A stretch of 64,000 nucleotides of DNA, taken from sequence record PZ179883.1; one strand, written 5' to 3'. This stretch comes from a phage. Of this stretch, positions 20,127 through 23,954 are shown one piece after another. The notes below the pieces were generated by a model. It ran no database searches. It saw only the letters and a list, made by a program, of their open reading frames with translations, and was not told the DNA's origin. A program made the position numbers and the translations under genes. The number at the start of each line of letters is the position of its first letter. The stretch's first letter is position 1.

Positions 20127-20597
20127 TTAATCATGTTTCCACACCCCATCGGTATTTGACCAAAGTCGCTGATTATCTGATCCTCGCCACAGCTTTTTGG
20201 TCGGAAGATTTTTCTCATACTTCCCATCAATAATAACATCAACATATTTAAGCATTTCTAGTTGTTTAATATCTTCAAATTTATATCCTGTCCACAACCA
20301 AATGCTTTTATTGGGATAAAGATTTTTTACTGTTTGAACAATGCAATGAACAACATCTCGGTTATCAGGATAGAGAGGGTCTCCTCCAGTTATAGTTAAT
20401 CCTTCTATATAATCATTATTCAAACATTCAATTAATTGTTCTAGTGTTTCACCAGTGAATGGAACGCCATTTCTAGCATTCCATGTTGATTTATTATAAC
20501 AACCTTCGCATTTATGCAAACAACCTGTAACGAAAAGAACGACCCTGCATCCAGGGCCATTCACAAAATCGCAGGGATAAAATCTATCGTAATTCAT
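20127..20597 (-). CDS. nrdG: Anaerobic ribonucleotide reductase activase NrdG (radical SAM)
   Basis: 156 aa; cysteine cluster GCLHKCEGC; overlaps nrdD stop. Confidence 0.9.
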   Translation of the reverse strand: MNYDRFYPCDFVNGPGCRVVLFVTGCLHKCEGCYNKSTWNARNGVPFTGETLEQLIECLNNDYIEGLTITGGDPLYPDNRDVVHCIVQTVKNLYPNKSIWLWTGYKFEDIKQLEMLKYVDVIIDGKYEKNLPTKKLWRGSDNQRLWSNTDGVWKHD

Positions 20598-22411
20598 TGG
20601 TGTTTAACCCTATGCATGATTTCTTTATTTTTGCCAAGATTAAATCCACGTTCATTCGGATTTCCCAAATAACCACAAGTTCTTCTTATTGTGTTCATCT
20701 TTTTAGGATCAGTTTCTCCACAAATAGAACAAACAAATCCGTTTTCAGTAGGAGTCATTTCATGGGTACTTCCACATGTAAAACATTTATCTACTGGCAT
20801 ATTAACACCAAAATAATCTAAATGTTGTGCAGCATAATCCCATACAGCCTCAAGACCCTTTAGGTTATTTTTCATATCAGGAAGTTCAACATAAGAAATG
20901 TGACCACCTGTCGCAATGAAATGATATGGGGCTTCGCGAGAAATCTTTTCAAATGGAGTAATATTTTCTTCTACTGAAACGTGGAAACTGTTAGTATACC
21001 AGCCTTTATCGGTAACATCTTTTACACTTCCATATTTTTCGGTATCAAGTTTACAGAAGCGATAGCACAGGTTTTCAGCAGGAGTAGAATACAAACTAAA
21101 AGCAAATCCAGTTCTTTCAGTCCACTGCTTAAGACGAGCATTCATTTTAGTTAAAATTTCTTGTCCAATATCACGACCGACAAGAATATTCAATTCGTGA
21201 ATACCGATGTATCCTAGGGACACTGAACTTCTACCGTTTTTAAATAACTCAATTATATCGTCATCAGGTTTAAGACGAACCCCGAATGCACCTTCTTGGT
21301 AAAGAATAGGAGCAACAGTCGCTTTAACTCCTTTTAAGGAACTAATTCTACACATCAATGCTTCAAAACATAAATCCATTCGTTCATTGAACAATTCAGT
21401 AAATTTCTGTTCATTGAACTGTGTTCCAATATAAGAATCTAACGCAATACGAGGAAGATTCAGTGTTACAACGCCAAGATTATTACGTCCATCAAGAATT
21501 TCATTACCAGTCGAATCTTTCCATACACTTAAGAAACTGCGGCAACCCATTGGAGAAACAGGAATAGATGAACCTGTGATAGCTTTATTGTTCTTAGCCG
21601 AAATGATGTCAGGATACATTCTTTTACTTGCACACTCTAGAGCAAGCTGCTTAATATCATAGTTCGGATCGTCTTTATAAAGATTAACACCTTCTTCAAC
21701 GAACATAACAAGCTTAGGGAAAATAGGAGTTATCCCATCACGACCAAGACCTTTAATACGATTTTTCAGAATTGCTTTCTGAATCATTCGTTCAGTCCAG
21801 TCAGTTCCCGTACCAAATGTAATTGTTACAAAAGGCGTTTGTCCGTTTGAACTAAAGAGAGTGTTTACTTCATATTCATAAGCTTGAAATGCATCGTATA
21901 CGTCTTTTTCTGTTTTAGATTGAGCATAATTCAACGCATCAGCGATTTGCCATTTTTCTGCATCCTCAATATGTTTTGCATAGGTGCGTTTAACATAAGG
22001 AGAAAGTACTTTATCTACATTCGCAAAAGTCGTTCCGCCGTATTGATGGGAAGCAACCTGTGCAGTAATTTGTGCCATAATTGCAGTAGCAACGCCAATT
22101 GATTTAGGAGTTTCAATCTGTGCATTACCGAGCTTAAACCCGTTCTCAAGCATTCCTTTTAAATCTACTAAACAGCAATTAGTAAATGGAAGAGCAGGGG
22201 AATAATCAATATCATGGAAATGAATAATTCCGCTTTCATGCGCTTTCATAATAAAAGACGGGACCATATTTTTGGCAATGTGTTTAGACACAATACCAGC
22301 CATAAGGTCCCGTTGAGTTGGAAAAACACGAGAATCTTTATTAGCATTCTCGTTTAAAAGGTCTTTATTAGTTTTATGAATCAATCCTTCAATTTCTTTT
22401 TCAATTGTCAT
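20594..22411 (-). CDS. nrdD: Anaerobic ribonucleoside-triphosphate reductase NrdD, uninterrupted
   Basis: 605 aa continuous ORF; C-terminal glycyl radical region and zinc-ribbon cysteines; no intron-like interruption. Confidence 0.95.
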   Translation of the reverse strand: MTIEKEIEGLIHKTNKDLLNENANKDSRVFPTQRDLMAGIVSKHIAKNMVPSFIMKAHESGIIHFHDIDYSPALPFTNCCLVDLKGMLENGFKLGNAQIETPKSIGVATAIMAQITAQVASHQYGGTTFANVDKVLSPYVKRTYAKHIEDAEKWQIADALNYAQSKTEKDVYDAFQAYEYEVNTLFSSNGQTPFVTITFGTGTDWTERMIQKAILKNRIKGLGRDGITPIFPKLVMFVEEGVNLYKDDPNYDIKQLALECASKRMYPDIISAKNNKAITGSSIPVSPMGCRSFLSVWKDSTGNEILDGRNNLGVVTLNLPRIALDSYIGTQFNEQKFTELFNERMDLCFEALMCRISSLKGVKATVAPILYQEGAFGVRLKPDDDIIELFKNGRSSVSLGYIGIHELNILVGRDIGQEILTKMNARLKQWTERTGFAFSLYSTPAENLCYRFCKLDTEKYGSVKDVTDKGWYTNSFHVSVEENITPFEKISREAPYHFIATGGHISYVELPDMKNNLKGLEAVWDYAAQHLDYFGVNMPVDKCFTCGSTHEMTPTENGFVCSICGETDPKKMNTIRRTCGYLGNPNERGFNLGKNKEIMHRVKHQ

Positions 22412-22881
22412 TTTAAACTCTTTCTAAGCTGCTTCTTAAATGAAGCTATTAACTGTGTTTTGGTGTCAGATTCATTATATTCAAATCCTCTTTGAAGCAT
22501 CTCGGCCATCATTTCCTCTTTTCCTAAACGAGAAAATTCCTTTGATTTATCTCCAACAAAGTTAGGGTGAATATTGTTTTGGGTGTAATCGGATTTTAAA
22601 TAAGTAAGTAAATTTTCTAACCATTCAAGATAATCAACACCTTGTCCCTTTAAGCCAGAACGATTAAATTTATGTTTCATTTGACCTTCTGCGGCATTGC
22701 AGAGATTACAAAGCAATCCACGTACCTTTCCTGCTTTTGGTCCATTTAATTCATGGTCATGATCAAGATGATTAGCTTGAACATCAGGATTTAGTTCTCG
22801 TTGGCAAATTAAACATTTACCGTTTTGTGCATCATAAAATTTCTGTTTTTCTTCTTTATATAATTTGCCAGTCAATAACAT
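22408..22881 (-). CDS. 49: Endonuclease VII (Holliday junction resolvase) gp49
   Basis: 157 aa, T4 endo VII length; zinc-binding cysteines and H-N-H-like core. Confidence 0.9.
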   Translation of the reverse strand: MLLTGKLYKEEKQKFYDAQNGKCLICQRELNPDVQANHLDHDHELNGPKAGKVRGLLCNLCNAAEGQMKHKFNRSGLKGQGVDYLEWLENLLTYLKSDYTQNNIHPNFVGDKSKEFSRLGKEEMMAEMLQRGFEYNESDTKTQLIASFKKQLRKSLK

Positions 22882-22921
22882 AATAAAACCCTTACCTTAA
22901 ATAGATAAGGGTATTTATTAT

Positions 22922-22977
22922 TTTTAAGTATTGTAAAACATTCGATGCAATCGTTTATACTGTCGAATCATCTTTTT
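22922..22977. repeat. Direct repeat copy 1 (about 52 bp) encoding a shared C-terminal tail
   Basis: aagtattgtaaaacattcgatgcaatcgtttatactgtcgaatcatc is about 88 percent identical to the copy at 23139-23190. Confidence 0.6.
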
Positions 22978-23100
22978 AGTAGGACGAGAATAGGTTCCTA
23001 CGCAAGTGGTCATATGAGGGTCCGTAGAATGTCCTTTAATAAAAAGTTTCCAAACCTTACCGCCATTTAACTTTTCAGTATAAACCAATTCGGTTTTCAT
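22924..23100 (-). CDS. Small ORF (58 aa) sharing its C-terminal 14 residues with pin
   Basis: Hand-translated as MKTELVYTEKLNGG...MIRQYKRLHRMFYNT; absent from the ORF track (below 60 aa). Confidence 0.3.
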   Translation of the reverse strand: MKTELVYTEKLNGGKVWKLFIKGHSTDPHMTTCVGTYSRPTKKMIRQYKRLHRMFYNT

Positions 23101-23113
23101 TAAAATGTCCTGT

Positions 23114-23218
23114 CAGAAAAAGAATTTTGAGTTTTTTCAAGTATTATAAAACATTTGATGCAATCGCTTATATTGCCGAATCTTTTGGTCAGAAAAAGAA
23201 ATTTGAGTTTCAAGCCAT
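23114..23218. repeat. Direct repeat copy 2 plus partial tandem re-duplication (cagaaaaagaa-tttgagttt motif twice)
   Basis: Second copy covers the pin 3-prime end; the motif cagaaaaagaattttgagttt recurs at about 23114 and 23188. Confidence 0.55.
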
Positions 23219-23640
23219 TCAATGTACTCTGCGGCAGCTTGCATCAGGTTACCTTCATAGCCATCGTTATTTTCTTGCGCAGCTAATTTAGCTAATGCGT
23301 ATGAAATACGTTCACCTTGAAAAGAGGCTTCAGGCTTCTGAACATCTTGGCTAGTTCTCTCTACAACTTCTTCAATTTCGCCATTTTCGACTGATTCAGT
23401 ATTCCACAAGCACCAATACGTAATTGGCTTATCGTAGATGTTAATAATCTTTCCGTCGGAAAGTTCAATTTCAATAATTCCAGTATCAGGTTCTATATCA
23501 TCTTCACATTCTTTTGCAAGTTCACGAACTTTAAAGACAGTACCTGCACTAAGTTCCGGCCAGTAATTACACAGCCCTATATCAACACGATTAATTCTAA
23601 ACCACTTATCTACTGTAATCATGTCCCATCTCCATATCAA
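23137..23640 (-). CDS. pin: Pin-like protein (protease inhibitor position)
   Basis: 167 aa ORF following gene 49 as in T4; assignment by synteny only. Confidence 0.5.
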   Translation of the reverse strand: MIWRWDMITVDKWFRINRVDIGLCNYWPELSAGTVFKVRELAKECEDDIEPDTGIIEIELSDGKIINIYDKPITYWCLWNTESVENGEIEEVVERTSQDVQKPEASFQGERISYALAKLAAQENNDGYEGNLMQAAAEYIEWLETQISFSDQKIRQYKRLHQMFYNT

Positions 23641-23744
23641 TTAAGTCATTTATCGTTGGTTCATTATATACTGTTTCTTCATCAGTGTAAACCGGTTCTT
23701 CCGGCTCTGGCTCTACAGTTTCCCATCTAGCCGCCCACCAAGGT

Positions 23745-23954
23745 TTAACCCCGAAGCTTATTAAGTTCTTCATAATCAATCCAGGATTCTAATCCTGATG
23801 GCAAATCAGATTCAATTTCCCAAAGAAGTTCTTCAATTTTCTGAAGACGATCTAATTCTTCGGCTGGAATAGTAACCATTGACGGAGTTCTTGATACACT
23901 AATATCGTAAATCATATTTACCCCAGTTTGACCATGCAATCGCCATATTTCCAT
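23745..23954 (-). CDS. Hypothetical acidic protein
   Basis: 69 aa ORF. Confidence 0.35.
   Translation of the reverse strand: MEIWRLHGQTGVNMIYDISVSRTPSMVTIPAEELDRLQKIEELLWEIESDLPSGLESWIDYEELNKLRG

Follow-up and report, generated by a model that had tools for sequence, protein, structure and literature searches.

A probable composite allele of the pin-to-gene 49 interval in Tequatrovirus, with a PinA tail that appears to derive from a small neighbouring gene

The interval between pin and gene 49 was analysed in a stretch of phage DNA of 64,000 nucleotides (nt) from record PZ179883.1, hereafter called the window, whose Tequatrovirus genome is 98-99% identical to RB32-type phages. All genes of this cluster lie on the minus strand, namely nrdD (20594-22411), gene 49, an open reading frame (ORF) of 58 amino acids (aa) at 22924-23100 to which we refer as the small gene, pin (23137-23622) and 49.1. 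Based on Pfam family PF10465, phrog_2167 and comparison with T4, pin encodes the Lon inhibitor PinA, with 161 aa counted from an ATG at 23622. Its ORF extends further to a TTG at 23640 (167 aa; region 23606-23640), but homologues and annotations use the ATG, in which case pin overlaps the end of 49.1. The small gene and pin end in nearly the same peptide, ..KKMIRQYKRLHRMFYNT and ..DQKIRQYKRLHQMFYNT respectively, with 13 of 14 residues identical.

A repeat search of the window recovered these ends within a 63-nt direct repeat (22907-22969 and 23120-23182) of 81% identity and 213-nt spacing. Its coding core, delimited by repeat and pattern searches and by alignment of alleles, consists of R_A (22924-22971) and R_B (23137-23184), both on the minus strand, both made of 15 codons and a stop, and identical at 41 of 48 nt. 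R_A comprises small-gene codons 44-58 (MIRQYKRLHRMFYNT) and a TAA stop, and would be the native copy; R_B comprises the last 15 codons of pin (KIRQYKRLHQMFYNT) and a TGA stop, and would be the captured one. Between them, the best 47-nt diagonal holds 41 matches, whereas none of 60 mononucleotide shuffles of the surrounding 1.2 kb gave more than 29, and a degenerate 43-nt pattern matches only R_A and R_B in the 64 kb, with none expected from 100 shuffles. The earlier note on this DNA, made from its letters alone, had reported a repeat of about 52 bp at 22926-22976 and 23139-23190 that gives both genes the same 14 C-terminal residues; both observations hold with slightly adjusted limits, and the identity over the full repeat and over its core lies above the 70% that the note had named as its lower bound.

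A second motif, AACTCAAAWTTCTTTTTCTGAC, is found at 23112-23133 (X1) and 23188-23209 (X2) and at no other site in the window. Its copies are 76 nt apart, one on either side of the R copy of pin. In the alignment of PinA homologues, X2 (23188-23211, minus strand) corresponds to the codons for ETQISFSD in pin, with which the PinA family domain truly ends. X1 (23112-23135) lies in a putative relic of the ancestral pin 3' end (23100-23135, minus strand), recognised by comparison with another form of the locus, described below as allele A, and by a 40-aa ORF ending EKTQNSFSDRTF. In this other frame the relic reads ..KTQNSFSDRTF before its stop, which overlaps the small-gene ATG (TAATG) as in allele A, and X1 together with its 3' flank AACTCAAAATTCTTTTTCTGACAGGACATTTTAATG equals the old pin 3' end of that allele (AACTCAAA(T/A)TTCTTTTTCTGACCGAGCGTTTTAATG). 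The motif had been thought to be tandemly re-duplicated. The pair is real and unique, but Tandem Repeats Finder reported no array, the spacing being 213 nt between the R copies and 76 nt between those of X; the second motif is best read as a relic of the old pin end within the same 76-nt unit as the main repeat, rather than as a separate re-duplication. The resulting pattern, X-R-X-body-R, is that of two different alleles joined in series and not that of a head-to-tail tandem duplication.

The small gene is a member of a defined family. Its product matches DUF7279 (PF23945) with 62.7 bits (cutoff 24.5) over residues 7-56, and phrog_3272 with an E-value of 3e-34 over residues 1-58 of a 59-position profile, tail included. 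Described earlier as unlisted, the ORF is in fact already annotated publicly, being 100% identical to RB32ORF078c, which is recorded as 'similar to RB69ORF087c, JS98orf087clike, pin'. The small gene stands directly upstream of gene 49 in Tequatrovirus, Mosigvirus, Dhakavirus and Gaprivervirus; homologues of the latter three genera have 56-59 aa and end ..RPTKKMIRQ(Y/F)KR(L/F)HR.FYN.., and Mosigvirus carries a second DUF7279 paralogue upstream of pin. The ratio of nonsynonymous to synonymous substitution rates is 0.07-0.20 in all informative pairs, between-genus pairs included, which indicates a conserved gene under purifying selection and hence, in all likelihood, a real one. A ribosome-binding site had been asked for as well as relatives, and both are present: an AGGA Shine-Dalgarno motif lies at 23108-23111, inside the relic and 7 nt before the small-gene ATG in the window's allele, and the ORF occurs in four genera.

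The small protein is basic, with an isoelectric point of 10.2 as opposed to 4.45 for pin. AlphaFold2 (AF2) predicts three strands followed by a helix at residues 42-56 (beta-beta-beta-alpha), so that the tail would form the C-terminal helix; confidence is moderate, as the predicted local distance difference test (pLDDT) score reaches 81.7 in the top model and 52-63 in the remaining four. Conservation within the DUF7279 alignment is highest in the tail, which holds most of the invariant residues (R39, P40, T41, K42, I45, R46, K49, R50, H52, R53 and F55). Searches for structural or family relatives of DUF7279 gave nothing informative, and our literature search found no mention of it. A profile search of 1.8 billion representatives returned 9 matches and the IMG/VR scans 6 loci each; long multi-stretch profile matches (P0014, P0017-19) were set aside as low-complexity noise, judging from their appearance in the Pfam scan. 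The family seems essentially confined to T-even-type phages. In Escherichia coli O157 typing phage 3 (L004, 1201-1379), DUF7279 is frameshifted into two short annotated ORFs, either as a pseudogene or through a sequencing error.

The same tail lies outside the family domain of PinA. The window pin matches PF10465 (Inhibitor_I24) with 157.9 bits (cutoff 27) over residues 4-141 and phrog_2167 with an E-value of 9e-65 over residues 1-146, and it shares 94.7% nt identity with T4 pin over codons 1-146. Residues 147-161 are covered by neither PinA profile and match positions 44-58 of phrog_3272, which places the domain end near residue 146 and the 15 C-terminal residues, on profile evidence, outside it. 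A search of a 5.8-billion-protein collection gave 33 PinA matches at E<=0.001. Among the 27 that were aligned, the 15-residue tail is confined to a class of 161 aa with 89% or more identity to the window pin; classes of 148 aa and of 136-144 aa are without it, and one further protein (P0047) represents a separate fusion with 9 tail residues only. PinA of Mosigvirus ends ..AAAEYIEYLERRLS (YLERRLS before the stop), and Dhakavirus and Gaprivervirus encode a 57-aa mini-PinA ending ..LEAQLR(F/Y)SDE(V/A)F (..LRFSDEVF in Dhakavirus, ..LRYSDEAF in Gaprivervirus), all of them tail-less. This mini-PinA (phage VR26 of Gaprivervirus, L007, 759-932; phage dhabil of Dhakavirus, L008, 1028-1201) consists only of the C-terminal helical part of T4 PinA; it belongs to phrog_9092 and matches window pin residues 103-146. 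In Shigella phage ESh15 (L006, 1244-1786), the annotated 180-aa 'protease inhibitor' starts upstream in the wrong frame region, and the locus really holds a 56-aa DUF7279 protein followed by a 137-aa PinA.

Because tail-less PinA stands beside tailed DUF7279 in other genera, and because the PinA profiles stop short of the tail, the sequences identify the small gene as the donor of the tail and pin as its recipient. The origin of the PinA C-terminus was not discussed in the literature that we searched, and it is apparently unreported that the C-terminus of T4 PinA would be a fragment of a lost neighbouring gene.

Four alleles of the interval can be distinguished within Tequatrovirus, most simply by the distance from the WLET codons of pin to the ATG of gene 49. 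In allele A (262-264 nt; HMD-9, IME340, JLBYU31 and ESh34, L009-L012), a 148-aa pin ending ..WLETQ(I/N)SFSDRAF overlaps the small gene by TAATG. Allele B (125-126 nt; T4, T2, T6, L014-L017, BF15 and REP3; 252 records) equals A minus 137 nt, with a 161-aa pin and the junction GACCGA/ATGATT. Allele C, that of the window, RB32, L013 and SG1 (339 nt; 114 records), has the order X2-R_B-TGA-X1-small gene-R_A and equals A plus 76 nt. In allele D (93-94 nt; KRT47, JoYop and IME339, L033-L035), a 148-aa pin ending ..RAF is retained and the small gene is cleanly gone through a 168-169-nt deletion (junction GCGTTTTAAT/ACTTGAAAATAATAAATA; site AAT / TTTTA.AAT). Counts for B and C are of records with at least 80% coverage of an allele-specific junction query. 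PinA is tail-less in some 142 Tequatrovirus records and in all other genera, and about 321 Tequatrovirus records have no DUF7279 at all.

Placed on the window, the excess of C over A, derived from the WLET-to-gene 49 distances, spans 23112-23187 (76 nt, minus strand; register ambiguous by the 24-nt X repeat), and the excess over T4, derived from alignment and the same distances, spans 22924-23136 (213-214 nt, minus strand; register ambiguous by the R repeat). In T4 the pin tail is directly followed by what stands after R_A in the window, and gene 49 starts 41 nt after pin; save for the 137 nt, T4 is collinear with allele A. The comparison with T4 and relatives proposed in the earlier note bears out a shared tail, but the other genera point to the small gene, not pin, as its source.

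Altogether, we regard the region as a likely composite allele of the pin-to-gene 49 interval, brought about by illegitimate and unequal recombination. The ancestral state would be that of allele A, in which the 148-aa pin ends ..WLETQISFSDRAF, its stop overlaps the start of the 58-aa DUF7279 gene, and that gene has its own C-terminal helix ..RPTKKMIRQYKRLHRMFYNT. Allele B would then have arisen by the 137-nt deletion, which takes the last two pin codons and small-gene codons 1-43 and would have fused pin, at residue 147, to the last 15 codons of the small gene, giving the 161-aa PinA of T4, T2 and T6; the 2-nt offset between the two ORFs keeps the deletion in frame. Allele C may have followed through an unequal crossover in which the A-rich tract after the fused pin stop (..ACTTGAAAA) was joined to ..AACTCAAA.. 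inside the WLETQ codons of pin in an allele-A genome. The product would carry the fused pin end in series before an intact unit of old pin end and small gene (X2-R_B-stop-X1 relic-small gene-R_A). The join of allele C, ACTTGAAAA/AACTCAAAA, lies within an A-run, and CTTGAAA is common to ..ACTTGAAAAT.. (after the tail) and ..GGCTTGAAACT.. (codons W-L-E-T).

The order from A to B by deletion, and from B and A to C by unequal crossover, is favoured by several features of the junctions. The T4 junction is closest to both parents, with CGA as in pin and ATG as in the small gene, and C alleles have derived junctions only (CAA ATG in RB32; CAA AAG in the window, L013 and SG1), both of which also occur in B. 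A 3-nt deletion had been considered for the window QK-IRQ relative to KKMIRQ and was ruled out, as comparison with RB32 and T4 points to an equal-length substitution of ATG by AAG. All B alleles keep TGA-AAATAATAAATA (TGA-AAATAAT) as in A, and R_A of C has TAA. Each favoured step makes a single novel junction and both parents are abundant today. Because all pin tails have Q in place of the family-invariant R53, the pin tails of Tequatrovirus appear to go back to a single fusion event.

Some observations sit uneasily with this history. The C junction contains three A's beyond what a clean crossover in the CTTGAAA 7-mer would leave, and sequences of today show no microhomology at the junction of the 137-nt deletion. 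Tail polymorphisms (QM/QK, that is M/K, and H/N) are common to B and C, a pattern that calls for repeated interconversion or for recombination within 20-45 nt of the indel. The order of events was derived from a few sequences of each allele rather than from a tree of all of the roughly 500 records, and the counts for A (about 73 records) and D (about 69) were deduced from how well a single query was covered and matched by classes of records, not by record-by-record inspection.

Comparable events were found at this locus elsewhere. In a Mosigvirus-like metagenome contig (L025, 1501-1926; Logan SRR20302901; P0047), pin ends ..YLERR/FHRDFYNVY, the last 9 codons being those of the downstream DUF7279 gene; this fusion is independent and arose by deletion at a 6-nt ACGTTT microhomology. 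Two ENA metagenome contigs from separate samples (L026 and L027, 1501-2076; P0046) have the upstream DUF7279 paralogue fused in frame to the PinA N-terminus (191 aa); there the downstream paralogue is gone and the pin stop directly meets the gene 49 leader. Escherichia phage ST0 (Mosigvirus; L005, 1201-1371) has no pin and a single DUF7279 gene that appears to be a hybrid of the body of the upstream paralogue and the ..FYNVY end of the downstream one, which suggests that recombination between the tails of the two paralogues deleted pin. Finally, UPWr_E4 (L032, PP418987.1, 7700-10400; locus at about 560-2009) carries a 100% identical 695-nt tandem duplication reaching from inside the R_B/pin tail (..GCATCAAATG) to near the gene 49 3' end, with two identical small genes, a truncated-fused gene 49 (..YNESRIKCFTILEKTQNSFSDRTF before the stop) and an intact gene 49. 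This duplication is either very recent or an assembly artefact.

Among other explanations, chance similarity between AT-rich stretches, or a faulty assembly, is hardly conceivable: only the AT-richness of the region speaks for it, the matches on the R diagonal far exceed those in any shuffle, no pattern match is expected, and the same junction recurs in 114 independent phage records. The earlier note had proposed a recent partial duplication of the pin 3' end that created a new small ORF mimicking the pin C-terminus. Part of this stands, since there is a partial duplication and the adjacent ORFs do share their terminal peptide by DNA descent, through an 85%-identical repeat. The direction, however, is reversed and the mechanism would rather be an old deletion-fusion. 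The small ORF is a full-length DUF7279 member with the tail inside the family model and under purifying selection, it occurs tailed in three other genera whose PinA is tail-less, and allele A pairs it with a tail-less pin, so that we regard a newly made mimic as highly improbable.

A more serious competitor, though still an unlikely one, reverses the order of the last two steps. Allele C would have come first from A, either through a double template switch or through tandem duplication of X-body-R and subsequent loss of the first body, and B would have come from C by recombination between R_B and R_A. Such recombination deletes exactly 213 nt and gives a T4-like allele, the tail polymorphisms are common to B and C, and tandem duplications seem to occur here, as in UPWr_E4. 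It requires one extra event, though, and no A-duplication intermediate was seen among the sequences compared. The B alleles examined have the pin-type Q codon, TGA and A-type downstream sequence, as opposed to CGA and TAA in R_A of C, which would confine the crossover to the 4 nt after the stop; that C alleles show only derived junction states also argues against this order. We therefore retain the deletion-first history, under which the small gene of allele C would no longer be translationally coupled to pin and would use the AGGA in the relic. In principle, the direct repeats of allele C could also delete by homologous recombination, the X pair losing 76 nt to an A-like state and the R pair 213 nt to a T4-like state.

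Whether the tail serves pin is a distinct question. Among pin tails, five changes are nonsynonymous (R53Q in all, R46Q in T4, M44K, H52N in most B alleles, Y56F in REP3) and one is synonymous; small-gene tails within Tequatrovirus show none and three respectively, plus the TGA/TAA difference (Fisher p = 0.048; counting the stop-codon change, 0.024). Three of the five pin-tail changes affect family-invariant positions (R46, H52 and R53). Since alleles A and D and the other genera have PinA without the tail, and since the pin tail has lost DUF7279-invariant residues, we infer that it is a passenger of the deletion endpoints rather than a selected mimic. Tempering this view, the relaxed constraint rests on six substitutions with p of about 0.02-0.05, and no truncated or frameshifted pin tails were seen, so that some mild function is possible. 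The AF2 model of pin (mean pLDDT 65; tail a helix below 50) is too low in confidence to inform on tail packing. The five silent differences between R_A and R_B were considered as proof of selection on both copies and rejected, as they may predate allele C in small-gene lineages.

T4 PinA binds and inhibits Lon (PMC8835725), and the shared tail may alternatively be a functional module, such as a Lon-binding C-terminal peptide kept by selection, with the DUF7279 protein and PinA both acting on Lon. We think this improbable. Three independent PinA-DUF7279 fusions (Tequatrovirus B/C, L025, and the N-terminal whole-protein fusion of L026/L027) and the adjacency of both genes in four genera would fit it, as would the existence of short, transferable C-terminal peptides that regulate Lon, e.g., those of LarA and HspQ (PMC10665427). 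The tail RLHRMFYN also loosely resembles KIHSNLYH, the end of the SulA degron Sul20, whose sequence and the role of Y19 and H20 have been described (PMC8087443). Yet its ungapped BLOSUM62 score against Sul20 (17-18) is reached by 7% of the 171 window ORF C-termini and is not above chance. The replacements at R53, R46 and H52, the 142 Tequatrovirus records and other genera with tail-less PinA, the 321 records without DUF7279 and the low pLDDT of the pin tail all speak against a kept module, and such fusions are mutationally easy because stop and start codons overlap. It accordingly seems quite doubtful that the DUF7279 helix is a Lon-interacting module, that the small basic protein acts jointly with PinA on Lon, and that the repeated fusions were selected as a PinA-Lon tether instead of being mutational accidents.

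Downstream of the small gene lies gene 49 (22408-22881, minus strand), a 157-aa endonuclease VII ORF with 97.5% nt identity to T4 gene 49 and annotated as such in RB32 and T4. A terminator-like hairpin scan located its upstream hairpin (22888-22912), in which the AAGGUAAGGG ribosome-binding region is paired, next to a late-promoter-like TAATAAATA (22913-22921); the RNA fold has -18.1 kcal/mol and a z-score of -4.46. By analogy with T4, 22888-22921 (minus strand) is a candidate for the gene 49 regulatory hairpin and late promoter. No Rfam family could be assigned to the hairpin, the two matches being sub-threshold (26.5 and 21.6 bits; gathering score, 50). The block ACTT(G/A)AAAATAATAAATACCC..hairpin..ATG of gene 49 is intact in alleles A, B, C and D and spared by every deletion endpoint, and the hairpin and promoter-like block is also found in Mosigvirus. 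Between pin and the small gene no sigma-70-like site was detected, and the sole hairpin is that of gene 49.

Other features of the cluster are noted in passing. Within 49.1, about 40 nt upstream of the pin ATG, positions 23663-23691 (minus strand) strongly match a sigma-70-like promoter (TTTACA-17-TATAAT, 11/12). In the window, nrdD is an uninterrupted ORF of 605 aa that lacks the group I intron and I-TevII of T4 nrdD, and the RB32 annotation has no mobC between nrdD and nrdG. Upstream of 49.1, RB32ORF081c (56 aa; about 23745-23915 in the window, minus strand) is described in RB32-type records as an 'antitoxin from a toxin-antitoxin system'; T4 has 49.2 and 49.3 at this position, so that this part of the cluster also varies between alleles.

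T4 PinA is the reference phage Lon inhibitor and a reagent in Lon biochemistry, and its last 15 residues would be foreign. This would explain why the PinA family models stop before the T4 C-terminus. Natural PinA variants with and without the tail place the domain boundary near residue 146 and offer a natural deletion series for work on Lon. For phage genomics, the locus is a clear example of how an in-frame deletion over overlapping genes and unequal recombination may give chimeric and composite alleles. All four allele states still segregate in one genus; neither a new mechanism nor a new kind of element is involved.

Compared with T4 PinA (PF10465; MEROPS I24; UniProt P07068), the window pin is a 161-aa orthologue with the same tail save for 2-3 residues; T4 has the fused gene only, whereas the window adds an intact DUF7279 gene and the old pin-end relic. 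The window ORF itself joins RB32ORF078c, RB69ORF087c and JS98 orf087c as a member of DUF7279/phrog_3272, far above the Pfam cutoff. Like the Lon degrons and regulators (Sul20 of SulA, LarA, HspQ), the tail is a short basic and aromatic C-terminal peptide on a Lon-interacting protein, with a loose [KR][IL]Hxx[LF]Y likeness to Sul20; however, Sul20 ends YH and the tail YNT, and the latter is predicted to be helical and integral to the fold of the small protein. T4-type mobile ORF cassettes carry an early promoter and stem-loop repeats around an inserted ORF. No such promoter/stem-loop borders were found around the small gene, where the flanking repeats are coding sequence. T-even phages are known for deletions and duplications at short or absent homology and for plastic regions in their genomes, and gene remodelling through recombination between short repeats, with an ORF already annotated, is the known kind of event seen here. 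Here too, deletion endpoints with microhomologies of 0-6 nt, an A-run junction and several alleles within one genus are found. What distinguishes the present case is that an in-frame deletion over two overlapping genes would have produced a chimeric protein that is now the reference T4 PinA.

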